From: Deltaproteobacteria bacterium
Lineage (GTDB): Bacteria; Myxococcota_A; UBA796
DNA: 17,045 nt
Direction: 5' to 3'
Assembly: GCA_002683315.1 (NCBI GenBank)
Contig: NYTD01000294.1
Span: 1 to 17,045, forward strand
Below the pieces are notes generated by a model. It was not told the origin of the DNA. It made no database searches and saw only the letters and a program-made list of their open reading frames with translations. The position numbers and the translations under genes were made by a program. This document shows, one piece after another, positions 1 through 17,045 of this stretch (position 1 is its first letter; every line of letters begins with the position of its first letter).

Positions 1-3000
1 GCGTTTTCCTCGCAGGTCGTATGTTCGTGTACGCCCTCTCCAAACCCCTTCAATACGACGTTGACCATCACATAGAGAAATAAATTTTTGCAAGAATTCT
101 GGATTGGTGTGTTGGATATCATCAAGATAGAGCATGACATTATTGGCCATTTCAAAGCCAAGATTGATCTTTTCTACTTCTTGACGTGCTGTCGCATTGG
201 GTGATTCACTGGGGTCTAATGAAACGACTTGATGGCCAATACTTGGACCATTTACTTTTACAAAAGCCATCCCCAAGCGTGAAGCAACGTATTCCATCAG
301 TGTTGTTTTACCATACCCTGGAGGAGAAATAAGCAAAAGCATACCCATAAGGTCGGTTCTCTTTCCTGCTCCGGATGCTCCGATCTGTTTGGCAAGATTA
401 TCCCCAATAAGCGGTAGATATACATCGTTAATCAGCTTGTTTCGAACAAATGAAGTTAAAACACGAGGACGTAATTCGTCCAAGCGTAGTCTTTTTTCTT
501 GTTCGATCAGGTACTGATGTCTTCGTTCTCGATAATTTGTAAATCCAGGGACATCGACCAAGTGAAATTGTGTCAGTCTTTCTAAGAAAGAGTCATAGCG
601 AAGGTGAAGAACTCCGTCTACGATGTTTTTATGCTGTCCTTGGAGATCTTTGATGCTTGTCTCTGTATTGACTTTATGAATCTGCCACATCTTTGGGTCT
701 GAACACCAATATACAATTAACTCTTCTAAGATATGCATGGAATCTGGATTGATAGAAGAGATTCCGGCATGAATCCAAGCACGAACCAGTTGTTCCTGTT
801 CGAATACATTATTGCTAAGATCTGCGATATTTCGTTTTAGACCTCTTAAAGCACTTCCTTTTTTGATCTTCGATCGAATCTGTTTGTCTACATTCGCGGC
901 AAGTGCCGATAAAATAAACTTAGGAACTGTGTTCGAAATCTCTACAGCGAGATAAGATCCGGCTCGCTGTAATTCAATCTGAGATAGATCTTGAAGTATA
1001 TTTTGTTGTTTCAGATATGTGGAAATAGCAATGGTGATTTCTTTTGAAAATTGAGAGTCGGTACCCGTTCCCATTGTCTTTTTCATCATAGCGAAGCTTT
1101 TTGCTCTATTTTTCCATCGGTCTTGTTCTATTTTTTCTGTTATGGATTTCCACCACCATACACCAGCAGCTCTTGAACGGGCAGAATAACGAAGGTTGCC
1201 AACATCTTTTCTCAATCGAAGCAGAGCGATTAGAATTTTGGTTGCATCTTCGTCATGAATACCTTTTACATATCCTGCACTTGGGAATAAAGATGCGTAT
1301 TCTTGCACATGTGTAGCAAGATTCTCAGCTTGTTCAAGTACACTGATGGAAAGATTATGCGTTTCGTCTTCTGCGGCAAACAGTACCGCTGCGGCCAGAT
1401 ATTCACTGCGAGAGACATGATTATTTTCAGAGATAAGAGCTTGATTCCAATACTTTTGGGTTTTCAAGAATTCTTCATCTTCTATTTGCTCATGAAAATC
1501 GGTGTTGCTGATGTGTAGTGCGACCCCATCTTTGTAGGGCGCGATGGTTAGGTCAAAGGGTTGTGTATTGATGGCAAATCGATGAGATCCCAATTTAATG
1601 AGATTGCTTCCCTCTTCAAATAATTCAGCAGTATCTCTGAGTTTGCGAAGGGCATCTTGTTCTGTCGACTGTAAAGAAGATAGTAATTCTTCTGCTTTGT
1701 TGGTGTCCAATAACGCAGAGATTTGTTGTGCCAACTTTCGAACACGTTGGATTCGACGATCTGTAGCAAAAAAGTTTTTCAGGGCTCCGATATCGGAGAA
1801 TCGTCGTTCAGACAAACCGGAAATGATTTGTTGTGCATTGGAAAAGAGTCGTGCAACACGTGATTGTCGCTGTTCAAGAAGTTGTTGTTTTTTAGAGAAA
1901 AGTGTGCTTTGAAGAAGTTCTCTTTTTTCCTCTATTTGATCGACAAAGTCGTCCACATCTCCAAATCGAGCATCGAGATCGTCCAATAGGCCAGCCAGAC
2001 GAGATGATTCTTCATCACATGCTTCAGGATTATCTGCTCTTGCTACACCACCTTCTAATTCAGAGTCGAATAATGATATATCGGCAGAGAATTGCGCATA
2101 TGCTTCTTTTTCTCTCAGTTTTTTCTGTTGGTTATCAAGTGAGAATTTTACTTGGTTACTTCTTCTTCGTACTTTTTGAATTGACTGTGTGATGGCTGTT
2201 TGGATTTCGATATCGTCGACTTGTAGACGTTCTTTTGCATCAGTAAGAACATTGAGTCCATCCATCACATTGTCTAGTTTCTCTGTAATGGGTTTAAGAC
2301 CTTTGGTTTTTTTGATATTTCCGAGCTCTTTTTCCATGTCATTGAGGTCACGAAGTAGGGGAGCAAAGGCATCTGGTCTTTGTAAGAATTTGGCACAAAG
2401 AGTACAGAGTTTGGTCATGTGTTCATCAAGAATAGCAATTTGCAGATCGAGTGCTTCTTCATCTATATATTTGATGGTCTCTAGTGATCTGGTTTGAGCC
2501 GTTTGTCTGTCCAGAATACCCATCCCTTCCATAAATTGACCGATACTTCGATAGTTTTCAGGCCTGATCTCTTCCAGCATAGAAGTGATTTCTTTTTTCG
2601 CTTCTTGAAGGGCGAGCTTGGCTTTTTTCTTCTGGGTTGCGACTTTTTCGAATTCATCAATGATCTGACCAGATGTGAGTCGCAATGCCTCAATTTCAGA
2701 CTCAAAGGAACCACTCTCATCATGAGAAAGCCAAGAGAAATCTTGAACGATGCGATCACAAGAACGAACCAAGTTTTTATATAGTGTGGATGTGGGATTG
2801 GGATTTTGTACGAGCTTGTGAAGAGTGTGCACATCGGATATGGCACGAACCAATTCTGCATTTCCGATATCGCGAAGAAATGAAGGAGCTTGATTCTTCA
2901 TATGCTCAATATAGTATTCGTCCGAGCAAAAAGGGGTGTTCCATATCTGTACCTCATGGGTTGTGGTCGGTTCGTCCTTTGCCCAGAAGAACAGAAGTGT

Positions 3001-4155
3001 ACCGTCATCCATAATCGAGTACCCGTGACATTCAATGGGATTACGAACTTCTTTGTTAACCATATTGTATTGCAACAAGAGATAGTGACCATCTCTTCTA
3101 CGAAGGTACACAAATAGGACATCCTCTCCATTGGGAGAGACGATCTTGGTTTTGAATTCAAGTTCTTCTGTGTCGAACGAAAATACGCGAAAAGAGCCTT
3201 CGGAAAGAACATATCCCTTTGGGAATATGAGTCCCTGGTTTTCGGGAAGGCGAATACAGGAAAGACCAATAGAGTCCTCTCGAACGACTTCATTGGTTAA
3301 GGTGTTGAATACAAAATAACGAGTTTCCTCAGCTCTAGGGGTAATTTGAAGAACGATGAGTTGTCCAACAAAAGCATATGCTATGTGTGCATCATCAAGA
3401 GTTTGGTAGGGGTCTTCTACGGGTTCTGAATAGATTCCTTCTCCATCTTCTGTGTTGTTCTCCACTTTAATGGTCAGGTCTCCCCCTACGGTTTCTACAA
3501 AGACTTTATTTTGGATGCTAACATGAGGATGGTTGCCTCGAATAAAGTCTTCTGGTGTTGTTTTAATCCAATCAAAGTCATGAGACAGAGGAAAGAGGTT
3601 GTCATCTCCACCAAATTCATCTTTGTATGTCAGGCCTCCTTTTCCGTCTGATAACCAACGAAATACTTTGGTGTCACGATGTGAGGCTCCAGTCTGAAAA
3701 ATAGCCAAAAATTTGGAAGAAAGAAGTCGAAATTGGATGAGTTTGGATTCTTTGTTGAATGAAAGAAGATTTTTATAGTCACGCAGAAATTGTTCATTTC
3801 GAAGAAATCTCCACGAATCTTCGTCTTGTAGTACTGAAAAAGAATCTTCTGAAAATTGGTAGAGAGCAAATGTGTCTTCAGTATCGATTTTTCGTAAGCC
3901 AAAATATACATTATATCCCAGTAGGACGGTTCCATTTAGGTAGACCATATCTACGGGAACACAATTATTATCCGTGATGATTTTATGTTTTTTACGTAAT
4001 GTAAAAACAGAGTCACCAAAGAGGGATGTTCTCTTTTCATTTAGTGTACGTGATTTTTGAAATATCTCTTGAGATGTACGTTCCAAACGAGCCTTGAGAA
4101 CTTTGTAATTATCCCCCAAGGCTTCACTGGATGTTCCTTCGTCTTTTTCTTCCAT
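1..4155 (-). CDS. Giant protein of at least 1385 aa; its 3' end lies beyond window position 1. The start ATG is at 4155-4153, 6 nt after the flotillin stop, with a GAGAAAGG Shine-Dalgarno-like sequence inside the flotillin 3' end. Domain order is an N-terminal globular region of about 480 aa, then about 750 aa of predicted coiled coil rich in E/K/Q/L, then a dynein/MoxR-type (AAA_5-like) AAA+ ATPase domain.
   Basis: I translated the minus strand from 4155 down to position 1 by hand and found an unbroken 1385-codon frame. It is absent from the ORF track only because it has no in-window stop. The Walker A motif LLLISPPGYGKTTLMEY is encoded at about 304-345. The Walker B motif VMLYLDDIQH is at about 109-135. 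It is followed by NPEFLQKFISLCDGQRRIEGV, which matches the hhhhDE-N...LLxLLD..R pattern of AAA_5/MoxR/midasin-type ATPases. The stop-to-start spacing of 6 nt indicates translational coupling with the upstream flotillin gene. Confidence 0.8.
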   Translation of the reverse strand, partial: MEEKDEGTSSEALGDNYKVLKARLERTSQEIFQKSRTLNEKRTSLFGDSVFTLRKKHKIITDNNCVPVDMVYLNGTVLLGYNVYFGLRKIDTEDTFALYQFSEDSFSVLQDEDSWRFLRNEQFLRDYKNLLSFNKESKLIQFRLLSSKFLAIFQTGASHRDTKVFRWLSDGKGGLTYKDEFGGDDNLFPLSHDFDWIKTTPEDFIRGNHPHVSIQNKVFVETVGGDLTIKVENNTEDGEGIYSEPVEDPYQTLDDAHIAYAFVGQLIVLQITPRAEETRYFVFNTLTNEVVREDSIGLSCIRLPENQGLIFPKGYVLSEGSFRVFSFDTEELEFKTKIVSPNGEDVLFVYLRRRDGHYLLLQYNMVNKEVRNPIECHGYSIMDDGTLLFFWAKDEPTTTHEVQIWNTPFCSDEYYIEHMKNQAPSFLRDIGNAELVRAISDVHTLHKLVQNPNPTSTLYKNLVRSCDRIVQDFSWLSHDESGSFESEIEALRLTSGQIIDEFEKVATQKKKAKLALQEAKKEITSMLEEIRPENYRSIGQFMEGMGILDRQTAQTRSLETIKYIDEEALDLQIAILDEHMTKLCTLCAKFLQRPDAFAPLLRDLNDMEKELGNIKKTKGLKPITEKLDNVMDGLNVLTDAKERLQVDDIEIQTAITQSIQKVRRRSNQVKFSLDNQQKKLREKEAYAQFSADISLFDSELEGGVARADNPEACDEESSRLAGLLDDLDARFGDVDDFVDQIEEKRELLQSTLFSKKQQLLEQRQSRVARLFSNAQQIISGLSERRFSDIGALKNFFATDRRIQRVRKLAQQISALLDTNKAEELLSSLQSTEQDALRKLRDTAELFEEGSNLIKLGSHRFAINTQPFDLTIAPYKDGVALHISNTDFHEQIEDEEFLKTQKYWNQALISENNHVSRSEYLAAAVLFAAEDETHNLSISVLEQAENLATHVQEYASLFPSAGYVKGIHDEDATKILIALLRLRKDVGNLRYSARSRAAGVWWWKSITEKIEQDRWKNRAKSFAMMKKTMGTGTDSQFSKEITIAISTYLKQQNILQDLSQIELQRAGSYLAVEISNTVPKFILSALAANVDKQIRSKIKKGSALRGLKRNIADLSNNVFEQEQLVRAWIHAGISSINPDSMHILEELIVYWCSDPKMWQIHKVNTETSIKDLQGQHKNIVDGVLHLRYDSFLERLTQFHLVDVPGFTNYRERRHQYLIEQEKRLRLDELRPRVLTSFVRNKLINDVYLPLIGDNLAKQIGASGAGKRTDLMGMLLLISPPGYGKTTLMEYVASRLGMAFVKVNGPSIGHQVVSLDPSESPNATARQEVEKINLGFEMANNVMLYLDDIQHTNPEFLQKFISLCDGQRRIEGVWRGRTRTYDLRGKR

Positions 4156-4161
4156 TCTTGT

Positions 4162-6342
4162 CTATTTACCTTTCTCAAGATCTGTTGCTTTTGCCAGCAG
4201 TTTTTGGAGGAGCTTCTTTTGCTCTCCAGAGGCTTCACTGGATAAACTTGCCAATAATGCGGTCAGAGAAAGATCGCGAAGGTTGCTGGCTTGCAATGTT
4301 GGAGAAGATAAAATGTTCCCTACTTCTTTGATGAGGTTTCCTTCTCCCTCTACGTAGTCGTGAGAGATTGCTTGCAGTGTCTGAGAATTATCCATGGTGG
4401 CATCTAGGGCTTGTCCGATTGATGCTGCGTGTACAAATCGATCGAAGAAGTCTCCGTCTCCACCGATAATTTTGATGTCTGTAGCTTTGAATGCTTCTGC
4501 CAATACACCAGCTTGTGATTTGGCAATGTCTCTGCGAACCGCGATTTTCGCCAGTGCAATTTCTGTTTGCTTGTCCAATTTTAGACGGAATTCTTCTCGT
4601 TCTTGAGAGATACTGTCCATAAGTTTTTGGGCATCGGCCAGTTTGGAAATACCTTCAGCCTCTGCGAATTTGATCTGACGAATCCGATTGGCTTCAATTT
4701 CGTTTGCTCTTTCGGCAATATTTACATTTCTCTCTTCCACATCTGCTTCGGCAAGTCCTTGCGAACGAAGTAATTCGGCCTGCGCGGATCCTTCATCTTG
4801 GATGTTGGCTGCCTTTGCGACGCCTTCTGCTCGGATGTTTTCTGCTTTGGCCGCACCTTGACGTTTGAGGTTCTCTGCATCAACATTGCCTTTTCTATCG
4901 ACAATGTTGAGCTCGAGATCATCGTTGGAAATTTTGATCTTGCGCAGATCTTCGCGATCGCGTTCTACTTGAACTTTTGCCATCTCTGTTGCCGCGAATT
5001 CTTTGGCTTGTGCATCTGCCAAACGTTCTTTTTCAAACGCTTGTGCCTCTGCGCGCATCTTTTGTGACTCTGTCTCAATTTCGGTTTTCTTGAGATCAAA
5101 AGACGCCATTTGCGATTCTATTTCAGCAACTTTTTTCGCGGCTTCTGCTTTTTCTTCTTCTTTAATTCGTAGCTCTTCTGCTTCGGCTTGTGCTGTGATA
5201 ATGGTAGATACCTTTGTTCTTTCTGCTTGTTCTCGCTCAATAATTGTTTTATTGGTCTCTTCTGCTTCGATTTTAATACCTTCTGCTCTTTTTAGTTTGG
5301 AAGATTCTTCTTCGGCTTTCGTTTGTTTTTGAAGATCCAATACAATGGCAAGTTCTTCACGTTTCTTTTGTAAACGAAGTTTTTCAGCCATATTTTCTTC
5401 TTCTTTGATTAGAAGGGCTTTTTCTCGGTCTTTCAGCGCAGCTTCTGCTTTTCTCATTTTGGCTTGTTCTGCAGCGAGCATTTCGGCTTCGTCATTCTTG
5501 CGCTGTAGCTCGATATCTTTTTCTTTTGTCAGCTCTTTGGTGGAGACTTCACGTTCACGTTTGATTCGCGCTTCTTCTTTTGCTTGGGTTGTGTTTTCAT
5601 CAATCTCGGATTTTTGACGCTCAGCAAGCTTAATTCTCTCCCACTTCTTGACATCTTCGTTGGCGATTTGTGCCTCTGCTTCGTTTGAGAGGCGAGCCTC
5701 TATGACCTGCTTCTCTTTTGTAATTCGAACGATCTTTTCGATACCCTGTGCATCGTTGGTATCATTTACATTGAGGAACTTGAGGTCTGTTTGCTCCAAG
5801 TAGTCAATCGCCACATCTTCAAGCACGAATCCGTTTAGATCTTCTCCGATCACTTCTTTTACTTTTTCTCGGAAGTCATCGCGTTTGTCGAACAAAGCTG
5901 CAAACTCAAATTGCTTTCCAGCTGTTTTGAGCGCTTCGGAGAACTTGGCATTGAATAGCTCATCGAGTGCTGCCAGGTCAGATGCTCGTTTACATCCGAT
6001 TGTGGAAGCAACTTCCAGAACTTTTTCCTTGATGGGATTGATGCGAACAAAGAAGTTTACATTGATGTCGGCTCGCAGATAATCTTTACAGATCAATCCA
6101 TTCTTTCCTCTACGATCAATGTCGATTCGCTTCACGGAGATATCAATGATCTCGGCTCGATGAATGATGGGGTATACAACACCTCCTGTGAAGGTTACTT
6201 CAGGTTCATCTTTCATTTTGTTAATGATGAGTGCCTGTCCTTGATCTACTTTTCGGTAAAACTTTGCAACAATGATGGCAAGTCCACCAAAAATAACGAT
6301 AATCCCGCCAATGAGGATTGCAGCAACGATCCATGTGTCCAT
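4162..6342 (-). CDS. Flotillin-like SPFH/band-7 protein of the YqiK type, 726 aa. It has an N-terminal TM helix, an SPFH domain, an unusually long E/K/A/R-rich coiled coil of about 370 aa, and a flotillin C-terminal region.
   Basis: The N-terminus MDTWIVAAILIGGIIVIFGGLAIIVAKFYRKV is a TM anchor. The segment RRGKNGLICKDYLRADINVNFFVRINP is recalled as matching the corresponding E. coli YqiK segment closely. About 370 residues of heptad-like EAxxK/R repeats follow. A GGAG lies 10 nt upstream of the ATG at 6342. Confidence 0.9.
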   Translation of the reverse strand: MDTWIVAAILIGGIIVIFGGLAIIVAKFYRKVDQGQALIINKMKDEPEVTFTGGVVYPIIHRAEIIDISVKRIDIDRRGKNGLICKDYLRADINVNFFVRINPIKEKVLEVASTIGCKRASDLAALDELFNAKFSEALKTAGKQFEFAALFDKRDDFREKVKEVIGEDLNGFVLEDVAIDYLEQTDLKFLNVNDTNDAQGIEKIVRITKEKQVIEARLSNEAEAQIANEDVKKWERIKLAERQKSEIDENTTQAKEEARIKREREVSTKELTKEKDIELQRKNDEAEMLAAEQAKMRKAEAALKDREKALLIKEEENMAEKLRLQKKREELAIVLDLQKQTKAEEESSKLKRAEGIKIEAEETNKTIIEREQAERTKVSTIITAQAEAEELRIKEEEKAEAAKKVAEIESQMASFDLKKTEIETESQKMRAEAQAFEKERLADAQAKEFAATEMAKVQVERDREDLRKIKISNDDLELNIVDRKGNVDAENLKRQGAAKAENIRAEGVAKAANIQDEGSAQAELLRSQGLAEADVEERNVNIAERANEIEANRIRQIKFAEAEGISKLADAQKLMDSISQEREEFRLKLDKQTEIALAKIAVRRDIAKSQAGVLAEAFKATDIKIIGGDGDFFDRFVHAASIGQALDATMDNSQTLQAISHDYVEGEGNLIKEVGNILSSPTLQASNLRDLSLTALLASLSSEASGEQKKLLQKLLAKATDLEKGK
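4540..5670 (-). repeat. Low-complexity coiled-coil-coding segment of the flotillin gene (E/A/K/R-rich heptads), with GAA/GCA/AAA/CGA-rich DNA.
   Basis: Flotillin residues about 225-600 are dominated by E, K, A, R, Q and L in heptad-like periodicity, for example EAEELRIKEEEKAEAAKKVAEIESQ. Antisense frames here give spurious Ser-rich ORFs at 5003..5332 and 5345..5617. Confidence 0.6.
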
Positions 6343-6407
6343 ATGTATGCTCCAGTATTGAGATGATAAACTCTACCTGTAATGAAATTTTTTGCAGATT
6401 TCATGTC

Positions 6408-6436
6408 TGTATACAATAGAGAGAGATATTTTCCAA
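6408..6436 (-). promoter_or_regulatory. Candidate sigma70-type promoter for the flotillin gene. Read on the minus strand, the -35 is TTGGAA (plus 6431-6436), the spacer is 17 nt, and the -10 is TATACA (plus 6408-6413).
   Basis: The reverse complement of 6408-6436 reads TTGGAA-N17-TATACA. This lies about 60 nt upstream of the ATG at 6342, inside a 186-bp AT-rich gap between the NfeD and flotillin genes. It rests on motif match only. Confidence 0.25.
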
Positions 6437-6473
6437 TTATGTACAAAGAAACAAGTATTCTATGCTTTCATCA

Positions 6474-6514
6474 TTGGGATCATCATGATCTATAATTTGG
6501 ATCTTTGATCCCAA
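6474..6514. promoter_or_regulatory. Perfect 9-bp inverted repeat (TTGGGATCA ... TGATCCCAA) with a 23-nt spacer, carrying four GATC sites within 33 bp, upstream of the candidate flotillin promoter.
   Basis: TTGGGATCA at 6474-6482 is the exact reverse complement of TGATCCCAA at 6506-6514. GATC occurs at 6478, 6487, 6500 and 6507. This could be an operator-like dyad or a Dam-type methylation cluster, or on mRNA a hairpin between the nfeD-like stop at 6529 and the flotillin start. Confidence 0.3.
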
Positions 6515-6528
6515 TCAATCTTGGTATG

Positions 6529-7398
6529 TCAAGTCTTTTGATTTTGTTGACGTTTTTTCCATTCAGAAAGACGATGTTGCACTTTTTGGGCAACGATACT
6601 TTGAATGGGTTCCACAATTAAAGCATTGCGTTCTTTATCAATAGAGATGACAAGGACTTCATCTCCATTGGTTAGGGCATTGTCGTGATCGCAGCGCGCC
6701 ATCATGATTAGTGGGGTTCCATTTCTACTTTTGATTTTTATCTCACCAAATCGATCGTTGACTTTGCTTGTTGATACAACCCCAATGCTACCGATAAGAT
6801 CGATGTCTCTTTCTCCTTGATTGGTTTCAAAGGCTCCATCAAAAGGACGAACCAATACAGAGGTGGCCAGAGTTCCACAAAAAAGAGCAAGTAAAAATGT
6901 TAGTGTGGCATTGATGAATGCTCCAAAAGGAAGGCTCGTCATCACCATGGCCACCATAAAGTATGAAATAGTCCAGCTTAATAATACGATTAGACTTGCA
7001 GAAACTGTAATAGGAACAGAGCGAAGTTTGAGGGCAGAGAGAAGACCAACGCTATCGGATATTCCTTCTACTTCCACTTCTGAGCCTATATCTCCAAGTG
7101 ATTCGGTAGCCCCTTCTGCTACGGCTTCTGCGCCGGCCTCTGCAGCCGCTTCTGCCACAGCTTCTGATGCTGCTTCTGCCGTGGCTTCTGCAGCCGCTTC
7201 TGCCGCGATTTCAGCAACTGTTTCTGAAGCCCCTTCGATTCCTCCATCGATAGCGCCTTCCAATCCATCTGCACCATCGAATAAATCTAGATCGGCAACA
7301 CCAATAAAGACAAAGCCCCAATAAAGAGAGAGAAAACCTAATAATATAGAGAAAATCCCAGTGGGCATGATCAAAATATTCTCTAAGAATGCTTCCAT
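6529..7398 (-). CDS. NfeD-like (YqiJ-type) membrane protein, 289 aa. It has N-terminal TM helices, an Ala/Glu-rich low-complexity linker, further TM helices, and a C-terminal NfeD OB-fold beta-barrel.
   Basis: Its position immediately upstream of an SPFH/flotillin gene on the same strand is the canonical nfeD-SPFH operon arrangement. The hydrophobic segments are MPTGIFSILLGFLSLYWGFVFIGV and LIVLLSWTISYFMVAMVMT...LTFLLALFCGTLATSVLV. The C-terminal region GERDIDLIGSIGVVSTSKVNDRFGEIKIKSRNGTPLIMMARCDHDNALTNGDEVLVISIDKERNALIVEPI resembles the NfeD short-form beta-barrel. The ATG at 7398 has GGGG about 9 nt upstream. Confidence 0.75.
   Translation of the reverse strand: MEAFLENILIMPTGIFSILLGFLSLYWGFVFIGVADLDLFDGADGLEGAIDGGIEGASETVAEIAAEAAAEATAEAASEAVAEAAAEAGAEAVAEGATESLGDIGSEVEVEGISDSVGLLSALKLRSVPITVSASLIVLLSWTISYFMVAMVMTSLPFGAFINATLTFLLALFCGTLATSVLVRPFDGAFETNQGERDIDLIGSIGVVSTSKVNDRFGEIKIKSRNGTPLIMMARCDHDNALTNGDEVLVISIDKERNALIVEPIQSIVAQKVQHRLSEWKKRQQNQKT
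7100..7240 (-). repeat. Imperfect tandem repeat with 9-nt periodicity (GCTTCTGCN / GCNGCTTCT) encoding an (A-E-A/T/S-A)n linker in the NfeD-like protein.
   Basis: The DNA at 7126-7230 reads gcttctgcgccggcctctgcagccgcttctgccacagcttctgatgctgcttctgccgtggcttctgcagccgcttctgccgcg. The protein segment is AEIAAEAAAEATAEAASEAVAEAAAEAGAEAVAEG. Confidence 0.6.
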
Positions 7399-7433: not shown

Positions 7434-8918
7434 TTATTGCGATGGGATTTTTTGACAAGGTGTATGCCCTCCAGTTGTGCTAGATTCTTCCCATATCCAG
7501 TATTGGTTTGATGAGGGAGTGATGAAATGGTTTTGCGATATATGTGTATACCAAGAAGACAAAGAAGAATCCCATCTGGGTTCATGTTTCGACGCAATAG
7601 GCATCACAAGGGTGAATCCAGCCTGTCTTAGCTCTGTGCTTAATCGATGAATACATTCTTGATTTTTGGTTCTACAGCAATGTTTAGGCTCTAAGATTAT
7701 TGCTTGGCCTCCATATTGTTGAGCATATGCAAGTATGGAGCGATGTCGTTCATCTCGAAGGGGGATGGTCGCAATTTTTTTGTTTTCTTTCAACTGTGAA
7801 ATAATAGTCCCAGCACCGATAAGACTTATATCTCGAAGCAGTCTTTTGGGAATAGGATCATATTGCTCGAGCCACAATTGCGGTGGTTTCGGGATTGTTG
7901 GTTTTTGAGTTTGCATCCATGTGTGACGATCTTTGCTCCAAACGTATTGATGACTCCACGTGTCTATGAGTAGGAATATGATTCCACAAAGTAGGATAGG
8001 GGTTGAAAAACGAATTTTTCCTAGCTGCACAGCAATAAGTGTGCACAATGGTACACCAAAAACGATCAGATAGCGGGGTCTTAGTTTCATTCCAAGTAGA
8101 CCACATGTAATCGTCATTCCTAAAATGGTCACAATGAGTAGGATGGTATGTTTTTTTTCTTTGGACATACAAAGCCATCCGAAGATTGCAATCAGAAGAA
8201 ATTGGAAAAACTTTCCTTCATTCATTCGATGGATGGAAAGATCATATAGCTGCTGGATACCATTCAGGAGATCAAAATGTGTAATGATTTCAGGATGACT
8301 TCTTTGGGGCCAGAACCAAGCATAGCTCCAAAAAAAAGAGTACCCCAAAAAAGGTGTCATCCATATATTTCTTTTGCTGAGCCATATGGGGATGAGTATC
8401 ATCATAGACAAGAGAGGAAGAGCAAGCTCTTTTGCCCATACCGAAATGGGAAGAAGTGTACATCCAAGCATTGATATGAGAATGCCATATAGCTTTTGTT
8501 GTTGTAGTCCGTAAAAGATACAGCCAAAACCCAATGTTGAAAGACCAATAGAGAAAGGATCATTTCCAAAGAGAAGAGCGAGATAATGAACTGGAGGCCA
8601 TGCCGAGATAAGTAAACCTGCAAAAAGAGCAGATTTTGAAGAGGAAAGAGAATGGGCATATAGGGTTGTACCCAATACGACACAGCCACCCATGAGGAAA
8701 GAGAGTATTTGTATTGTCGTTTCAAGAGGAAAGAGCGCTGTACCCAGTAGATAGATGGATGCTGCAAAATCATTCTTTGGAGTTCCTACACTCGCGAGAT
8801 ATATGCTCCAAGAACCTGCAGCTCCGGGAAGATCACTTCGATCTTGTGCACATATAAAATACCCTTGAACAAGACCAAAAGAGATTAAAGGAAGTATGTG
8901 GGATAGATAAAAGCGCAA
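7434..8918 (-). CDS. Polytopic integral membrane protein of 494 aa, with about 9-11 predicted TM helices and a soluble C-terminal domain of about 150 aa. It may be a GT-C-fold (ArnT/PMT-like) glycosyltransferase or a related lipid-linked sugar transferase.
   Basis: Hydrophobic helices run throughout, for example LISFGLVQGYFI, ILSFLMGGCVVLGTTLY, ILISMLGCTLLPISVW, FLLIAIFGWLCM and ILLCGIIFLLI. The start is TTG (no ATG or GTG is available after the in-frame stop at 8943-8945), so the true start is uncertain. It sits 35 nt upstream of the nfeD-like gene. The GT-C assignment is a guess from topology only. Confidence 0.55.
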   Translation of the reverse strand: MRFYLSHILPLISFGLVQGYFICAQDRSDLPGAAGSWSIYLASVGTPKNDFAASIYLLGTALFPLETTIQILSFLMGGCVVLGTTLYAHSLSSSKSALFAGLLISAWPPVHYLALLFGNDPFSIGLSTLGFGCIFYGLQQQKLYGILISMLGCTLLPISVWAKELALPLLSMMILIPIWLSKRNIWMTPFLGYSFFWSYAWFWPQRSHPEIITHFDLLNGIQQLYDLSIHRMNEGKFFQFLLIAIFGWLCMSKEKKHTILLIVTILGMTITCGLLGMKLRPRYLIVFGVPLCTLIAVQLGKIRFSTPILLCGIIFLLIDTWSHQYVWSKDRHTWMQTQKPTIPKPPQLWLEQYDPIPKRLLRDISLIGAGTIISQLKENKKIATIPLRDERHRSILAYAQQYGGQAIILEPKHCCRTKNQECIHRLSTELRQAGFTLVMPIASKHEPRWDSSLSSWYTHISQNHFITPSSNQYWIWEESSTTGGHTPCQKIPSQ

Positions 8919-8983: not shown

Positions 8984-10813
8984 CTAATCTGCACATATAA
9001 ACTGATCAAAGATCAATTGGTTGTTGTTTTCACGGCATTCTTCGATCATGTCTTGCTCATCGAGAAAGATAAATATTCCACGTTCCACTTCTTCTTGTGT
9101 AAATGAGTAGGGACCACTCCAGTATACTTCTTGTTCCTCGAGAATGGGTATGACATCGGTCTCAAATGTTCCATCGGGGCTTTGAATATATACGGTGATC
9201 TCTTCTTCAATACTTCGAAGCCCGGTGTTTTCTATGGGGATATAGATGTCGATTATATGTTGTCCACAGTTGTATAGACAAGCAGAGGGAGATCCGATTT
9301 GGATGTCCGGTAAAGACAACCCAACTCTGGTTTCCGAATTTCCTGCTCGAAAATTGTTCCAGTGTAGCCAGCTTGGATAGGGATAGGCGGGAATACTTCC
9401 ATCGTCTTCAATATTGGTGATGGAATATGCGTATTGGTTCCAAATGGTACGTGCGGCTACCCAAGAATTATCATTGCTTCCGATAACACGAAGACCATAA
9501 TCTGAATCTCTACCACCTGGTAAAAGGATTTCAGCTGAGCCATCTTTGTCAATGTCAACGATGGTCGGATATTCAAACCGGGTTCCAGAATCGTGTTCAT
9601 TCCACTCCAGTTCTACTTGACCTGTTGCACCATCCAAAATCCACAATGTTTCCTCATCGGCATATACTACCTCGGCAGCACCATCTCCTTCAAAATCAAA
9701 AACAGAAGAACCAGTCATTCCAGAAGAGGCTTCTTGAATGGGATGTGACCAAAGAAGCGTGCCATCTCCATCCAGAACGATATAGTCTTCCTTTGAAGCG
9801 ACACCAACTTCTGCAGCGCCATCGCCATCGAAATCGGCAATGGTAGGAGGGCCACTTCGCGAGCCATATTCATAGCTCCAGATCAACATTCCTTCATCAC
9901 TGAGAACAGTAATAATTCCATCGGATGTGGATACGATTTCTGGTGACGTGTCTCCATCAAGATCGCCAAGTGCTGGAAATCCAACGATACCTTCAGCTTC
10001 CCATATCAAGGTTCCATCATGAGTAAAGATCGCACCACTACTAATGACTTCTTGTGTACCATCAAGGTTGATATCAGCAGCAAAGGAGCCAAAATATTTG
10101 TTTGCATTTTCGTGATAGTCGGGTCTTTGCCATCGTATGGAACCATCAGCATTGAGAACGGTTCCCCCTAAAATAATTTCAGAAGAACCATCTCCGTTAA
10201 GATCGGCCAAAGATATGATCGAATCTCCTCCACTTCGCGTGTCAAAATCGGCATGCCATACCATATTACCTTGTATGTCAAGGCGCATGACCCCATGTTT
10301 GGTTGCGGCAAAGATATCGGGAAAACCATCTTCATCAACATCTCCGGCAGCGACTCCAGATATGCCCCAAAATGGATGGTTCTCGTCAGATGCGATAAAC
10401 AATGGCTCTTGGGTTTGACCTGATATTGCAATTAGGTGTCCCTCTCCTCGAAACTTATTTCTACGAAACGCAGGGAAAATAATGTCAGGGATATCGGATT
10501 CATCGATTCGACCGTCTCCGTTGTCATCATTTAGGTTGATGGCTATGGGAGGAGATTCTACAACATTGTATTCTTCATCGATGTCATTGTCTTTCCATGT
10601 CCACTCAAGCACGGGAGAAAAAGTTCCTATTTCTGGCTCCGCAGTACAATCCATGTATCGATTGGGCATATAATTATCTTGTCCAGACTCTTGGCACTCT
10701 TCTTTGCCTGTGTCTGGGATGGTACCCGGTTGGACATCTTCATGGACATTTTTTAGCTCGTACTCATTACAGCCCCAAAATAATAATGACAAGCTGAATA
10801 ATTGGATCTTCAT
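8984..10813 (-). CDS. FG-GAP repeat (integrin-alpha-like beta-propeller) lipoprotein of about 609 aa from the revised start. It has an N-terminal lipoprotein signal peptide and a C-terminal beta-rich domain of about 120 aa of unknown type.
   Basis: Repeats of the form FDGDGAAEV, FDFEGDGAAEVVYAD, DIDKDGSAEILLPG, DLNGDGSSEIILGG and DLDGDTSPEIV are diagnostic of FG-GAP/VCBS-type propeller blades. The ORF-track start at 10840 is a TTG nine codons upstream. The ATG at 10813 gives MKIQLFSLSLLFWGC (lipobox L-F-W-G-C) and is preceded by AGGAG 9 nt upstream, so I place the start there. Confidence 0.8.
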   Translation of the reverse strand: MKIQLFSLSLLFWGCNEYELKNVHEDVQPGTIPDTGKEECQESGQDNYMPNRYMDCTAEPEIGTFSPVLEWTWKDNDIDEEYNVVESPPIAINLNDDNGDGRIDESDIPDIIFPAFRRNKFRGEGHLIAISGQTQEPLFIASDENHPFWGISGVAAGDVDEDGFPDIFAATKHGVMRLDIQGNMVWHADFDTRSGGDSIISLADLNGDGSSEIILGGTVLNADGSIRWQRPDYHENANKYFGSFAADINLDGTQEVISSGAIFTHDGTLIWEAEGIVGFPALGDLDGDTSPEIVSTSDGIITVLSDEGMLIWSYEYGSRSGPPTIADFDGDGAAEVGVASKEDYIVLDGDGTLLWSHPIQEASSGMTGSSVFDFEGDGAAEVVYADEETLWILDGATGQVELEWNEHDSGTRFEYPTIVDIDKDGSAEILLPGGRDSDYGLRVIGSNDNSWVAARTIWNQYAYSITNIEDDGSIPAYPYPSWLHWNNFRAGNSETRVGLSLPDIQIGSPSACLYNCGQHIIDIYIPIENTGLRSIEEEITVYIQSPDGTFETDVIPILEEQEVYWSGPYSFTQEEVERGIFIFLDEQDMIEECRENNNQLIFDQFICAD

Positions 10814-10840
10814 GATGATGCTCCTCGATTGAATATTCAA

Positions 10841-11028: not shown

Positions 11029-12831
11029 ATGAAATTCGCCTTTAGATCCAAGATGATTCTTCTCTGGTTCACCTGTCTTTCGTGTACAGGAGAGGAACAC
11101 TTTTCTTTTTCTGTCAAAGCGGATGTTGTGTCTGAAGAGACACAAGAAGAATCTGAAGAGCCCGTCACATATTCATCGTTACCCAATACCTGCGCACCGA
11201 GTCAAGTAGACTCCGATCCGCTCATAGAAAAGGGGTTCGTCTTTACACAAGACTATGTTTTTGCTGAATTGTTGGATATCGTGTACGAGCCAGAAGAAGA
11301 GGTCATTTGGTCAGTAGGGCAGGGGGGACTCATGGTGTTTGATGTCTCCAATCCAGCGCAACCAGAATTTATGACATCGTATAGTCCTTTGGCATGGCAT
11401 GAACGAGCATACCATCTTGCTTTGGATGGTTCTGAACGGATATTTCTTACCCATCGTAAAAATGGATGGATGTCGTACGATATACGCAATCCACTACAAG
11501 CGAGTGCTGGAGAGTTTATGCCACTCTCGGGAGCGTCTGGCATCGCGTATGAGGAAGATATCGTATATGTGGCAACCCATACTGGTTCGGTCTATTCATA
11601 CGATGTTTCTCTCGCTTTTCCAGAGATGCTTGATGTTGTTTCTGATCTTGGAAATCCATGGCGAATGGTACTAGGCGAAAACTATGTATACGTAGCAGAC
11701 AATACACAAGGTCTTGTTGTCATCAACAGACAATCTCCACAGCAGCTCACGGTTAAGAATCGAGTGTTGGGTAGTGGAGGGTTGCAAGATGTGGTTTTGA
11801 ACGAAGAGATCGCATACGGAGCAGCAGGAGGTCTAGGGATTGATGTTTTTGATGTTTCCAATCCCGAAAGTCCGCAATGGATCGGCAATATCCCAACATC
11901 GTATCCCGCGATTGAGCTGGCCGTGGATAATGATGTTCTGTGGGTAGCCTCCCAGCAAGATGTCATCGCCATTGATATATCAAATCCGTATGATCCTGTT
12001 ATTGTAAATACCGAGAAGACCCGACAATGGGCCATGGCCATCGATGCTGCCGATGGATATGCTTTTGTTGCTGATTGGGGGTATCTGTCCATTCTGGAAT
12101 TGCAGGCTGATGTTTCAGGTAGCGATCTTCATCTTGCATCAAATCAGGTCTATATCGATGAGAATGAATCGATGTTGATTGCACTTCGCAACTTTGGAAC
12201 AAAGCCCATTGAAATCTTTGGAGGAACATCTTCACATCCAGATGTAGGGCTTGAAATCTCTTCTTTGGAGATTGAACCGCACGAAACCCAGTGGCTTTCT
12301 ATTCAGAAAAACACATCACAGGGAAGTCAAATCTGTATTGCTTCGTCAGATCCAGATGCTTCGCAAGAGTATATCAATGTGGTTGGTCCACAAGAACATC
12401 CAATTGGTTCCACAGCTCCGGATTTCAGCTTGACGAGTCTGGATGGGACATTATATCGTCTACAAGAGATGTATGGCTCCTATGTTGTTTTGGTATATTT
12501 TGCCACGTGGTGACCGGTATGTGCATCCGAGGTCTCGGATATTGAACACAGTATTTGGCGGCGATATAAAGATGAAGGAGTCATCGTACTTGGGATCGCG
12601 TCCCAAGAGCCACAGATGGAAATTGAACAGTATGTGGAACATCTTGGGATCACGTTTCCGGTATTGATGGATTCCAATGGCGAGGTGCATTCTCAATATC
12701 AGCAGCAGTCAGCATTTCCATCGGCAGCATATCCACAAGATTGGGTGATTGGTCCAGATTCCACCATTGTCTATCGAAATAACGGATATGAGCTTGATGC
12801 GATTTTGTCTGCAATTGGTAAAGCACAGTAG
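11029..12831 (+). CDS. Selenocysteine-containing lipoprotein of 600 aa with Sec at codon 495 (TGA at 12511-12513). It has an N-terminal lipoprotein signal (MKFAFRSKMILLWFTCLSC), an LVIVD-repeat beta-propeller region, and a C-terminal TlpA/redoxin-type thioredoxin fold with a U-P-V-C active site.
   Basis: The ORF track ends the gene at ...VVLVYFATW* and lists a separate 71-aa ORF at 12616..12831. The frame is continuous through the TGA, with no other stop until TAG at 12829-12831. The read-through sequence PVCASEVSDIEHSIWRRYKDEGVIVLGIASQEP...LGITFPVLMDSNGEVHSQYQ...DWVIGPDSTIVYRNNG matches the redoxin consensus F.ATWC.PC..E.P.L...Y...GV.VLG...D...FPVL.D..G.V...Y.V...P.TF.ID..G.I. The TGA sits exactly where the first Cys of WCxPC belongs, and a SECIS-like hairpin follows 11 nt downstream. 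LVIVD-type repeats include GGLMVFDVSNPAQPE, QGLVVINRQSPQ, GLGIDVFDVSNPESP and DVIAIDISNPYDP. Confidence 0.75.
12525..12540 (+). other. Bacterial SECIS-like stem-loop: a 6-bp stem AUCCGA/UCGGAU with a 4-nt loop GGUC, beginning 11 nt 3' of the in-frame UGA.
   Basis: The sequence after TGA is ccggtatgtgc (11 nt), then ATCCGA GGTC TCGGAT, a perfect hairpin. The apical sequence GAGGUCUC closely resembles the CAGGUCUG apex of the E. coli fdhF SECIS, which carries the conserved G and U loop bases. The 11-nt spacing between UGA and the hairpin base matches the canonical bacterial SECIS geometry. Confidence 0.65.
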
Positions 12832-12833
12832 CA

Positions 12834-15107
12834 TTAGCGAATATAAAAGTCACCACTTGATTGGTGCGCGCTGGGCCATGGGCGATGTTGAAAGACACAC
12901 GATGTTCCAAAAACAGTATTGTTGGTTTTGTAGCCATACTTTCCAATACCCATCCACGTACCGGATACTCCGCCATCCCACGTGTGAAAGTTGAAACCAA
13001 TTCGCGCACGGATATTGGAGCATCCATTGTGTCCTTGTGTTGCATTTATGGTTAGGCTTGCAACCAATGGTTCGCTGTCGATTTGGGTAGGGGTACAATC
13101 TGTAGAGTTTTGTATGACATCGAAGAGGCTTGATCCTGTCCAGCAATGAGAGACATCTCCAATCGCATTATGATAGGTGCTCATGACTTCTGTGAAATCC
13201 GATATTTCCATATAAGCGGGCGAGATATGGTGGTCATCGTGAACGGTGGCGTATCCTCCAGACTGCGTCCAAGAAGAGTCGTCATAATATGGTGCCGATT
13301 TGAGAACGAGCATCCATCCTCCACCGTAGCTGGTCATATCGCAATATGCTTCAAAAGCATTACCATCCATTTGTGGATCGATCCAGTATATGTCACTTGG
13401 TGCACTGGTATTGCTTTCGATAATACTCAAACAGCTTTCCATGGGGACACTTACTTGCGAACCACACAGGAAAAACGAAGCATCTGCATCATCGCAGTCA
13501 GCCCCTCCTATTTGATCGAAGCTGTCATACCCGTCTTGGTCTTGGTCGTAGTCACTTTCTCCATCACAATCACTGTCGATACCATCATACCAAACTTCGG
13601 CAATTCCGGGGTTGACAGTGGAATCTTCATCGTTACAATCAGGGTTTGTCGGATCATTATTACGCCAACCGTCTTGGTCTTGGTCGTAGTCGCTTTCTCC
13701 ATCACAATCACTGTCGATACCATCATACCAAACTTCGGCAATTCCGGGGTTGACGCTATTGTCTTGGTCATTGCAGTCCTCGGCAATCGAGACATATCCT
13801 ATGGGTTGGTTGCACCCCATTTGTGACTCTGTTTCATCTCCGTATCCATCTTCGTCATTATCGAGATACCATGTGGACATATCGATGGCATCTTCTTCGT
13901 CGGTTTGTCCGTCGCAGTCATTATCCAAACCATCACAGATTTCATCTTGTGATACATATACACTTGCGTTGGTATCATCACAGTCATCGGTGTTGGCTAC
14001 GTATGAGGCTGGCTGCATACAGCTCGTCATTGTGAAAAGTGCACTACCGTACCCATCGCCATCATAGTCGATATACCAAGTGGGTGCATCAGAAGCATCA
14101 TTTTCATCGATGGTGCCGTCGCAGTCATTGTCTGCACCATCACATGTTTCATCTGCTCCCCAATAGGTATTGGAATTTGTATCGTCGCAGTCATTGTCAT
14201 TTTGAGAATGTCCTGTGGGTAGAGAACATGCAGCGGTGGGAGAAAGAGGATCTCCAAATCCATCTTCATCTGTATCTGCAAAGAATATTTGGGTACCATA
14301 TGCGCCATCTTCATCGATGTATCCATCGCAATCGTTGTCGATTTCATCGCAGATCTCAATAGAAAATGGATTGGCGTAGGTTTCCAAGTCATCGCAGTCT
14401 CCTGCTTGTGCTACAAAACCTTCGGGTGCAGAGCACGATTCCATTGTATTATCTTCTGTTCCAAATCCATCACTGTCTTTGTCTTCGTAGAAAACGATAC
14501 GTAACCCTTCGTCGATGGTACCAGTACAGTTATTGTCAATGTCATCACAAATCTCTGTGGCCAAAGGATGAATATCGGCATCGGTGTCGTTGCAGTCATC
14601 TGAAAATAGTGAAATCCCCAATCTTAGGGCACATTCTTGAACAGGCTGATTGAGATCACCAAAGCCATCTCCATCCTCGTCGAGATAGAATTCTTGCATT
14701 AGGCCTTCATCGATATCTTCGTTGCAATTGTTGTCGAGGCCATCACAGATCTCTTCTGCACCCGGAAATACTGTATTGTCAGTATCGTTACAGTCCGAGC
14801 CATTGTCAACAAAGCCATCTTGTTCGGAACAACTTTCTACTGTCAGTCCTTCATTGCCAAATCCATCTTCATCTGCATCGGCATAGTAGGTCGTTTTTAC
14901 ATCTTCATCGATGGTTCCATTACAGTTATTGTCCATCCCATCACAAATCTCTGTGGCAGAAGGGGAGATAGAGGCATTGGAGTCATCACAGTCTTCCTCA
15001 GCAAGAAATCCGTCACCATCTTCATCGATGGTGATTTTACCCGTATCTGGGTTGGTTTTTGTCGATTCACCACTGCAGGCGAGTAGATAGAAGAAAGAAA
15101 AGAGCAT
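12834..15107 (-). CDS. Large acidic secreted lipoprotein of 757 aa. It has a lipoprotein signal (MLFSFFYLLACSG), about 8-9 Cys-rich 'putative metal-binding / Myxococcales-type' repeats (D.DGDG...C.....DCDD.....P.A.E.CDG.DN.CDG.IDE), and a C-terminal fibrinogen-related domain (FReD).
   Basis: The repeat is seen as EDCDDSNASISPSATEICDGMDNNCNGTIDED, GSDCNDTDNTVFPGAEEICDGLDNNCNEDIDEG and so on, eight or more times. The C-terminal domain contains YCDMTSYGGGWMLVLKS, matching the hallmark (Y)CDM...GGGWTVIQ motif of fibrinogen C-terminal domains. The ATG is at 15107. The stop TAA at 12834-12836 is only 2 nt from the convergent stop of the selenoprotein gene. Confidence 0.8.
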   Translation of the reverse strand: MLFSFFYLLACSGESTKTNPDTGKITIDEDGDGFLAEEDCDDSNASISPSATEICDGMDNNCNGTIDEDVKTTYYADADEDGFGNEGLTVESCSEQDGFVDNGSDCNDTDNTVFPGAEEICDGLDNNCNEDIDEGLMQEFYLDEDGDGFGDLNQPVQECALRLGISLFSDDCNDTDADIHPLATEICDDIDNNCTGTIDEGLRIVFYEDKDSDGFGTEDNTMESCSAPEGFVAQAGDCDDLETYANPFSIEICDEIDNDCDGYIDEDGAYGTQIFFADTDEDGFGDPLSPTAACSLPTGHSQNDNDCDDTNSNTYWGADETCDGADNDCDGTIDENDASDAPTWYIDYDGDGYGSALFTMTSCMQPASYVANTDDCDDTNASVYVSQDEICDGLDNDCDGQTDEEDAIDMSTWYLDNDEDGYGDETESQMGCNQPIGYVSIAEDCNDQDNSVNPGIAEVWYDGIDSDCDGESDYDQDQDGWRNNDPTNPDCNDEDSTVNPGIAEVWYDGIDSDCDGESDYDQDQDGYDSFDQIGGADCDDADASFFLCGSQVSVPMESCLSIIESNTSAPSDIYWIDPQMDGNAFEAYCDMTSYGGGWMLVLKSAPYYDDSSWTQSGGYATVHDDHHISPAYMEISDFTEVMSTYHNAIGDVSHCWTGSSLFDVIQNSTDCTPTQIDSEPLVASLTINATQGHNGCSNIRARIGFNFHTWDGGVSGTWMGIGKYGYKTNNTVFGTSCVFQHRPWPSAHQSSGDFYIR
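13531..13754. repeat. Recent in-frame tandem duplication with a period of 138 bp (46 codons). Two 86-bp cores at 13531-13616 and 13669-13754 are identical at 85 of 86 positions.
   Basis: The sequence ccgtcttggtcttggtcgtagtc[a/g]ctttctccatcacaatcactgtcgataccatcataccaaacttcggcaattccggggttgac occurs twice. It duplicates the protein segment NPGIAEVWYDGIDSDCDGESDYDQDQDG in the 757-aa lipoprotein. Confidence 0.85.
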
Positions 15108-15667: not shown

Positions 15668-17045
15668 CTATTCACTTCCATACATTAGATATGCTTTTCC
15701 ATATCCGTGTGAGGTTGACGTAAGCCAAAAATCATCGAATCCATCCCCATCAACATCCCCAACTGGATTGATTCCTCTTCCCAACTGGTCGTTGCTCGTG
15801 GCACCATATAGTACAAACGATGCCTCATCAATGAGGTTCATGGAACCTGTTTCAGCACCACCATATACACCATATACCGCCCCAGAATTGTTGCCGTTGT
15901 CATCATTTTTGTGTGCGACAATGGCGATATCGCTTAGACCATCACCATTCACATCACCGATTCGGTGAACATATTCACCAGTATTGTCATCATCGGATGC
16001 ACCATAAAAAATATGGGAGGAGAGGGATAGGTCGGATTGCGTTTCTCCACCATATACAAGAAACGCGCGGCCTTCGTCTTGATCATTGATATCGTAATCG
16101 GGTGCACCGATGAGAAGATCGGTTTGTCCATCTCCATTGAAATCCCCTGCATCTGCGATGGAATATCCAATGTGTTCTTTGAATTGTGTCCCATGAAATT
16201 TTTGAAGCATATTCACATCAAGGGCCTCATCAAACAGCATGGATTTGGGGAGAATAAATACACTTCCTGTATCGGTGGTGATGTCATCACTGTAAATGGA
16301 TGAGATGGCATATTCAATAATTCCATCCCCATCAAAGTCATTGATGGCGGCAATCTGCCATCCGAGGTATTGTCCGTTGTTGGCTCCATATATACTATGT
16401 GTGAGCGTTGGTGTTTCTCCACCGCTAAAGATATGAACGGCTCCGCGATTGGTCCCCGCACCATCATCTCCACGAGCAGTAACCAGAGCATCATCAAATC
16501 CATCTTCATTTGCGTCACCAATGGCAAGGATGTCATTGGCAAATTGATAATTGTCAATACTTGTGTGTAATGATTCAAGAGGTATCTCTTCCTCTACTCT
16601 ATCGATAGAGAAAAAATACACGGATCCTGCTTTTGTACCTTGTTCAAATCCACCACCAGTCATGATATCTTCTATGCCATCTCCATTCATATCGCCCACA
16701 AAAGCCAAACTTCTACCCACTCGCTCTTGTTCGGTGTGTCCAGACCAAAAGGCACCTTGATCTGGTATGTCGGGAAAGTCTTGGAAATCTAAATCTGCTG
16801 GGACATAGAAGAGGCCTCCTTTGAATTCATCATAGCTGTGCATCGCAAAGATCATGGCTGGTTTTGTGGGGTCAGAGCCGATGGGAGCAACGTCTGTTTT
16901 TATTCCAAATCCCCCTCCAAAAGGAGAATTCCATCCTTGTGTAAATCGATGTGCATTCATGGTTGCGGTGGTACCGTTACAGTCTGCGTCAATATCGTCG
17001 TTTTTCTCGATGGCGCGTGGATGAATACGAGAATCGTTATCATTA
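15668..17045 (-). CDS. FG-GAP repeat beta-propeller protein. The frame is open to the window edge, so the gene is probably 5'-truncated by the window. The first in-window ATG is at 16960.
   Basis: Repeats include VGDMNGDGIEDIMTGG, IGDANEDGFDDALVTA, INDFDGDGIIEYAISS, AGDFNGDGQTDLLIGAPDYD, IGDVNGDGLSDIAIVA and VGDVDGDGFDDFWLTS, each followed by G-x-hY-hh-G, which is the canonical FG-GAP pattern. Translating upstream of the ATG at 16960 gives ...NDNDSRIHPRAIEKNDDIDADCNGTTAT with no stop before position 17045. Confidence 0.8.
   Translation of the reverse strand, partial: NDNDSRIHPRAIEKNDDIDADCNGTTATMNAHRFTQGWNSPFGGGFGIKTDVAPIGSDPTKPAMIFAMHSYDEFKGGLFYVPADLDFQDFPDIPDQGAFWSGHTEQERVGRSLAFVGDMNGDGIEDIMTGGGFEQGTKAGSVYFFSIDRVEEEIPLESLHTSIDNYQFANDILAIGDANEDGFDDALVTARGDDGAGTNRGAVHIFSGGETPTLTHSIYGANNGQYLGWQIAAINDFDGDGIIEYAISSIYSDDITTDTGSVFILPKSMLFDEALDVNMLQKFHGTQFKEHIGYSIADAGDFNGDGQTDLLIGAPDYDINDQDEGRAFLVYGGETQSDLSLSSHIFYGASDDDNTGEYVHRIGDVNGDGLSDIAIVAHKNDDNGNNSGAVYGVYGGAETGSMNLIDEASFVLYGATSNDQLGRGINPVGDVDGDGFDDFWLTSTSHGYGKAYLMYGSE

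Follow-up and report, generated by a model that had tools for sequence, protein, structure and literature searches.

The window analyzed here is the entire 17,045-bp contig NYTD01000294.1 of a metagenome-assembled genome (MAG) recorded as Deltaproteobacteria bacterium (GCA_002683315.1), and its positions 1-7398 carry three consecutive minus-strand open reading frames (ORFs) encoding a YqiJ-like membrane protein, a flotillin and a giant AAA+ ATPase. These genes are another instance of a published, computationally defined system, namely the operon described by comparative genomics by Ravi et al. (mSystems 2024, PMC11237479; bioRxiv 2020). The adjacency of its members is kept across at least six phyla, at ATPase identities of 31-83%, and is not coincidental. 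We read the operon as a flotillin-scaffold system that would be served by a cytoplasmic, ATP-driven remodeller or assembly factor under envelope stress, and assign this reading a probability of roughly 0.6. A preliminary description of the same DNA, made from its letters, had located the three ORFs correctly and had proposed that they form a membrane module, without being able to assign it to a named system; the module proved to be genuine and conserved, and both the operon and its abbreviated form turned out to have been published.

The linkage was surveyed in 80 metagenome loci with relatives of the ATPase at 35-43% identity, collected by an alignment-based scan (an earlier single-protein scan of genome contigs had yielded three distant loci only). 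The six-frame ORFs of these loci were searched with hidden Markov models (HMMs) for the flotillin, the YqiJ-like protein and PspA, and each partner was counted only where there was room for it: the flotillin over the 63 loci in which 2.4 kb or more precede the ATPase, the YqiJ-like protein over 53 loci, and PspA over 47. In 59/63 loci, the ATPase is immediately preceded on its own strand by a flotillin-like ORF, and a YqiJ-like ORF precedes the flotillin in 49 of 53. The same gene order was found in Terrimonas rubra and a Bacteroidetes MAG (ATPase identity 31-34%), in MAGs of Bradymonadia and of Acidobacteriota, in a 319-kb JGI contig, on a Deinococcus plasmid and the Pseudomonas fluorescens megaplasmid pQBR103, and on a Streptomyces linear plasmid, where a "flotillin family protein" followed by a "DNA repair ATPase" is annotated. 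For Proteus and Vibrio, the matches cover the ATPase alone.

Co-transcription of the flotillin and ATPase genes is likely. In the window, the TAG stop codon of the former and the ATG of the latter are separated by just 6 nt (acaaga, 4156-4161, minus strand), which the preliminary description had taken as translational coupling that defines the module. Across the surveyed loci, however, this gap has a median of 90 nt and is at most 20 nt long in just 11 of 59 cases; tight coupling is therefore lineage-specific and not a feature of the system as a whole. The spacer between the YqiJ-like and flotillin genes is longer (186 nt, 6343-6528), and a promoter/terminator scan found no minus-strand terminator-like site in it and promoter-like matches at chance level. 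An Rfam search gave nothing useful. On the other side of the YqiJ-like gene, a 494-aa ORF on the same strand (7434-8918) ends 35 nt before it and may be co-transcribed; its match to an Agl23 flippase-associated family is weak and below the cut-off (E 3.8e-5).

The operon of Ravi et al. also includes CesT/Tir and PspA genes, and the same authors found abbreviated operons without PspA to be widespread and proposed that the system takes part in PspA-linked membrane dynamics, as part of the phage-shock membrane-stress network (PMC11237479). The prototype listed in their Table S3, from Dokdonia donghaensis (ANH61663.1), has the same gene order. The last three genes of the published operon match those of the window in architecture, order and strand: the window encodes an AAA+ protein with a propeller and a coiled coil, a flotillin anchored by a transmembrane (TM) segment, and a YqiJ/YuaF-type protein with three TM segments. 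It differs from the published operon in its Ala/Glu-rich loop insert, in its 6-nt flotillin-ATPase spacing, and in the absence of the CesT/Tir-PspA dyad that marks the full form. Because a Pfam scan found no PspA or CesT domain in any ORF of the window, we assign it to the abbreviated, PspA-less form of the operon.

In the surveyed loci, PspA is encoded directly upstream of the YqiJ-like gene in 12/47 cases, always together with DUF2170/YjfI or CesT_Tir_1. Only directly upstream PspA ORFs entered this count, since many matches of the unfiltered PspA HMM probably fall on coiled-coil parts of the flotillin and the ATPase. Two Bacteroidota loci (L001 and L003) show the order CesT_Tir_1, PspA, YqiJ_N-like, flotillin, ATPase (DUF3686), and when flanking ORFs were clustered, the only recurrent neighbors were PspA, DUF2170, rhomboid, a helix-turn-helix (HTH) regulator and CesT. 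A role in envelope stress, which had been among the candidate roles proposed from the sequence, fits the recurrence of PspA, CesT and YjfI as neighbors. On pQBR103 (NC_009444.1; locus L087, 1-13193), genes for YjfI, PspA, rhomboid, DUF2491, DUF350, DUF1190 and glutathionylspermidine synthase precede the triad, and the ten-gene run ends with a hypothetical protein (YqiJ-like by position), an SPFH protein and a "DNA repair ATPase". This run unites two PspA operon classes that were described separately by Ravi et al. (PMC11237479). The rhomboid intramembrane protease gene within it (L087 1430-1984) has counterparts directly downstream of the ATPase in 6/80 loci (L031, L035, L044, L067, L070 and L080).

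The giant gene occupies positions 1-4155 on the minus strand, with its ATG at 4155 and 1385 open codons up to the contig end, where it runs off; its 3' end lies beyond the record of the MAG contig. Considering that full-length homology extends to more than 4955 clusters (at 90% identity), with proteins of 1700-2000 aa, the ORF is real. Its nearest homolog, here called P0001, is 83% identical and has 1865 aa, and is encoded in a locus with the same three-gene order (294, 726 and 1865 aa) followed by a convergent gene. By homology to P0001, the complete ATPase of the window would therefore comprise about 1865 aa, with about 480 C-terminal residues encoded beyond the contig end. Homologs go by the names "DNA repair ATPase" (NCBI) and "MoxR-like ATPase" (JGI), and the protein has the DUF3686 - DUF7902 - AAA architecture of the Pfam/NCBI "DNA repair ATPase" family, as do homologs of 1600-2000 aa.

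The N-terminal 480 residues or so, which had been called motif-less, contain a confident match to Pfam DUF3686 (PF12458, "ATPase involved in DNA repair") at aa 33-473 (2737-4059, minus strand; E 8e-161, 535.9 bits against a cut-off of 25). Searched exhaustively, the first 500 residues matched 588 clusters at 50% identity, and among the matches listed, DUF3686 is N-terminal in nearly all full-length proteins (~1600-2000 aa). An AlphaFold2 model of residues 1-500, with a predicted local distance difference test (pLDDT) score of 89 and a predicted template modeling (pTM) score of 0.84, begins with a long helix, continues with about seven blades of four strands each (aa 52-406; 2938-4002) and closes with a helical bundle, and fold comparison of the modeled DUF3686 region returned propeller folds. 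This part of the protein is thus predicted to form a beta-propeller. It is followed by a helical and coiled-coil spacer (436-2718; aa 480-1240), in which a heptad heuristic, itself crude, marks mainly aa 483-850 as coiled-coil-like. The coiled coil inferred for this region by the preliminary description is therefore supported in part, and its extent of about 750 aa was overstated: the spacer also holds DUF7902 (2122-2373; aa 595-678; E 2.7e-12, 47.2 bits against a cut-off of 26) and conserved globular, non-heptad motifs such as HRFxVNTQP.

Only the N-terminal half of the AAA+ module lies within the contig (1-339; aa 1273-1385, cut by the contig end). It includes the Walker A motif PPGYGKT (304-324; aa 1278-1284) and the Walker B motif LYLDDIQ (112-132; aa 1342-1348), both as first noted and both invariant across 42 aligned homologs, and even this truncated domain scores above the cut-off of Pfam AAA (PF00004, 33.1 against 21.2 bits). 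For the C-terminal 685 residues of P0001, a model (pLDDT 79, and above 90 in the AAA+ core) places a hairpin between the strands of Walker B and sensor-1, and its last 440 aa are helical throughout. Judged by this modeled fold, the module is closest to the MoxR/midasin/dynein clade (pre-sensor-1 hairpin and helix-2 insert), which supports the dynein/MoxR-type call made from the motifs. Within this clade, whose core fold is represented by the MoxR family (CbbQ, NorQ and RavA), midasin and dynein, the window-type ATPase stands apart in having no vWA/MIDAS and no AAA_3, a single AAA module, and a DD in its Walker B motif. A C-terminal vWA domain, as in MoxR and midasin partners, had been suggested as something to look for; neither a vWA domain nor an AAA_3 (PF07726) match was found in P0001, and no vWA gene was found among the recurrent neighbors. 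Matches among PDB sequences to the classic-clade proteins VCP, Rix7 and Rpt3 were considered and rejected, as they span the Walker A region alone and the fold favors the MoxR clade. A hydropathy scan of the ATPase found no TM segment, and Pfam scans found no protease, other effector, nuclease or DNA-binding domain.

The flotillin gene (4162-6342, minus strand, 726 aa) encodes a protein with a single TM segment in the hydropathy scan (aa 1-30; 6253-6342), followed by an SPFH/Band-7 region (~5773-6261), a long coiled coil (~4468-5787), which the preliminary description had also recognized, and a C-terminal globular tail. Neither the flotillin nor the YqiJ-like protein has a Pfam match on its own sequence. 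The flotillin is related to Escherichia coli YqiK (BLASTP E 6e-33; family-profile hhalign probability 99.9%), which carries Band_7 and Flot; its homologs match PF01145 and bear the name YqiK at JGI. Among PDB sequences, the flotillin sequence by itself matched the prohibitin-2 coiled coil marginally and nothing else, and its family profile gave no match. Both the flotillin and the protein encoded upstream are 100% identical to existing products (locus tags CL916_13580 and CL916_13585).

The upstream gene (6529-7398, minus strand) encodes a protein of 289 aa with three hydrophobic blocks in the hydropathy scan, arranged as TM1 (~7288-7380), an acidic Ala/Glu-rich loop (~7045-7287), TM2-3 (~6841-7035) and a C-terminal OB-like domain (~6604-6816). 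Its family profile aligns with E. coli YqiJ (hhalign probability 82%, E 1e-5) over TM2-3 and the OB region, and no match to PF01957 (NfeD) or PF07290 was found, even at E values up to 1. With moderate confidence, based on profile similarity, we therefore consider it a YqiJ/YuaF-type protein; the label "NfeD" used before was approximately right in that the protein is NfeD-like, and imprecise in that the profile points to the YqiJ/YuaF type. The protein evolves fast, and a word-based search gave 10 relatives only. The loop between TM1 and TM2 is a low-complexity repeat, in which A and E make up 75% of a 40-aa stretch; at this site, acidic repeats of other types (DG, DV and ALDGA) are found in relatives, and only the close lineage of the window has the EA-rich form. 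E. coli YqiJ is shorter by about 80 aa.

Among the closest known arrangements is E. coli YqiJ-YqiK, with a homologous flotillin, a similar upstream protein and the same gene order; the YuaF-FloT pair of Bacillus subtilis likewise combines an NfeD-like protein and a flotillin. Unlike the window, E. coli has no ATPase gene downstream of this pair. Its YqiK has 553 aa, compared to 726 aa for the window flotillin, and ATPase-linked flotillins typically have about 600-800 aa and longer coiled coils. Across 65 homologs (31-83% identity), the ATPase keeps a nearly constant 851-904 aa, with a median of 880, between the end of its propeller and its Walker A lysine, and the flotillin spacer measures 364-459 aa, with differences in steps of 3, 4, 7 and 11 residues. 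Such steps are as expected for indels that preserve the register of a continuous coiled coil.

Our proposal for how the operon works builds on what the analysis shows, i.e., the domain architectures, the topology classes (three, one and no TM segments), the near-obligatory gene order, the extension by PspA and CesT, and the tightly held length of the ATPase spacer. The flotillin, held by its N-terminal TM anchor and joined by its YqiJ-like partner, would build a scaffold or cage of coiled coils at the inner membrane, on its cytoplasmic side. The ATPase would hexamerize through its MoxR-clade AAA+ module, so that six propeller-tipped arms could engage the scaffold or its clients, and under envelope stress, ATP would be spent on building the scaffold, remodeling it or taking it apart. 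In doing so, the ATPase may act together with PspA, encoded either in the operon or elsewhere in the genome. A more specific version, which we put forward tentatively and rate below even odds, is that the giant ATPase is a dedicated ATP-driven motor for the assembly or disassembly of flotillin cages, whose six arms of fixed length (about 880 aa) would reach over a coiled-coil cage that varies in height by whole helical turns. If so, flotillin microdomains would be actively remodeled rather than being passive scaffolds, and PspA would be recruited to the same site.

Two functional analogies can be drawn for such a system. HflK/C-FtsH and the prohibitin-m-AAA protease complexes couple, at a membrane, an SPFH scaffold to a hexameric AAA+ ATPase, and the window operon would resemble them by analogy, with the flotillin in the place of the HflK/C cage. 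However, FtsH is a membrane-anchored protease of the classic clade, whereas the window ATPase is soluble, belongs by its modeled fold to the MoxR clade and has no protease domain, and HflK/C and prohibitin are of a different SPFH subfamily than the window flotillin. The second analogy is that of Vps4 acting on ESCRT-III: PspA, a member of the ESCRT-III family, is encoded in about a quarter of the operons, and an ATPase that remodels a membrane-bound polymer is what we propose here. Unlike Vps4, the window-type ATPase has neither an MIT domain nor the classic-clade fold, and its constant partner is the flotillin rather than PspA.

Several observations weigh against our reading. Four of the 63 loci (L011, L019, L037 and L043) have no flotillin upstream of the ATPase despite enough sequence, and the ATPase can thus occasionally occur without its usual partners; AIM24 and Peptidase_M48 occupy the flotillin position in L037, and ThiF and a pyridine-nucleotide disulphide oxidoreductase in L043. 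The window itself lacks PspA. The Walker B motif LYLDDIQH has DD in place of the usual DE in 42/42 aligned homologs, and such an invariant substitution could make hydrolysis slow or switch-like. Between ATPase and flotillin, spacer lengths correlate weakly (Spearman 0.41, p 7e-4, no phylogenetic correction), so that the signal for a "molecular ruler", in which the two spacers would co-vary, is weak and takes no account of kinship. Finally, our literature searches found no paper naming DUF3686 or PF12458 and no experimental study of the family, nor anything linking a "DNA repair ATPase" to a flotillin or YqiJ/YqiK to an ATPase; a search combining SPFH and MoxR gave an unrelated paper only.

The main rival to the remodeller is sequestration, in which the flotillin cage would enclose or regulate the ATPase and confine its activity to a microdomain, while the true substrates would be found among other proteins of the membrane or envelope. 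The linkage data (59/63 and 49/53) apply to this possibility too, HflK/C-FtsH is an established case of an SPFH cage with an AAA+ machine inside (cited in PMC11188069), a propeller is a generic protein-binding platform, and a rhomboid protease recurs nearby. The ATPase has no protease or effector domain and no membrane anchor, however, and we consider sequestration a possible but clearly less probable explanation, while noting that the present data do not separate the two.

Much less probable is that the operon is an anti-phage or conflict system, which would sense membrane perturbation at infection and trigger a membrane-based response. A defence role had been among the first suggestions for this locus, and it agrees with the occurrence of MoxR-clade ATPases in combination with beta-propellers in conflict systems (PMC7159879), with the response of phage-shock-protein (PSP) systems to phage secretins, and with the presence of one copy of the operon on the megaplasmid pQBR103. 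Searches of PADLOC-DB 2.0, however, gave only marginal matches, to mad8 with the P-loop of the ATPase (E 0.0038) and to a Type I specificity protein with the YqiJ-like protein (E 0.091), and none with the flotillin; no match was found among 50,697 phage records. The recurrent neighbors are PspA, YjfI/CesT, rhomboid and HTH regulators, without defence genes among them, and instead of diversifying, both the ATPase and the flotillin are conserved and constrained in length, with no vWA partner.

We consider it very unlikely that the giant protein is a true DNA-repair ATPase of the SMC or Rad50 kind, as its Pfam and NCBI names and weak sub-threshold matches to the RuvB P-loop would have it. Those matches are limited to the Walker A region, at 25.6 bits against a cut-off of 282, the fold is that of a MoxR-clade AAA+ protein and not an ABC/Rad50 head, the scans showed neither a nuclease domain nor one that binds DNA, the genes conserved next to it encode membrane proteins, and no supporting literature was found. 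Since the name "DNA repair" has only this sub-threshold similarity to RuvB behind it and is contradicted by fold and gene context, we regard it as unsupported. That the giant gene and the flotillin gene adjoin by coincidence in this contig, for which the four loci without a flotillin might speak, is refuted by the survey, with a flotillin in 59/63 loci and the same order in at least six phyla.

The remainder of the contig (8984-16960) codes for large repeat proteins. Two FG-GAP proteins are encoded on the minus strand (8984-10840 and 15668-16960), as is a protein (12834-15107) that combines eight MopE metal-binding motifs with a fibrinogen-like GGGWT domain, and an LVIVD-repeat protein is encoded on the plus strand (11029-12513). 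A MopE/RCC1 protein also adjoins the operon in the 83%-related contig L004.

How bacterial flotillins act mechanistically continues to be debated. With a near-obligatory partner ATPase that occurs in thousands of genomes from at least six phyla, the question becomes accessible to experiment, and the operon occurs in tractable hosts, including P. fluorescens (on pQBR103), Streptomyces, Deinococcus and Myxococcus. The system had already been published as a comparative-genomics prediction, to which the window adds an instance from an uncultured marine Myxococcota-like MAG. Our analysis adds that the name "DNA repair ATPase" is unsupported, that the ATPase is by its modeled fold closest to the MoxR/midasin/dynein clade and has no vWA domain, and that its spacer is tightly conserved in length. 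Some bacterial PspA/ESCRT-III systems have no Vps4, and the giant ATPase may be the answer to where such systems obtain their energy.

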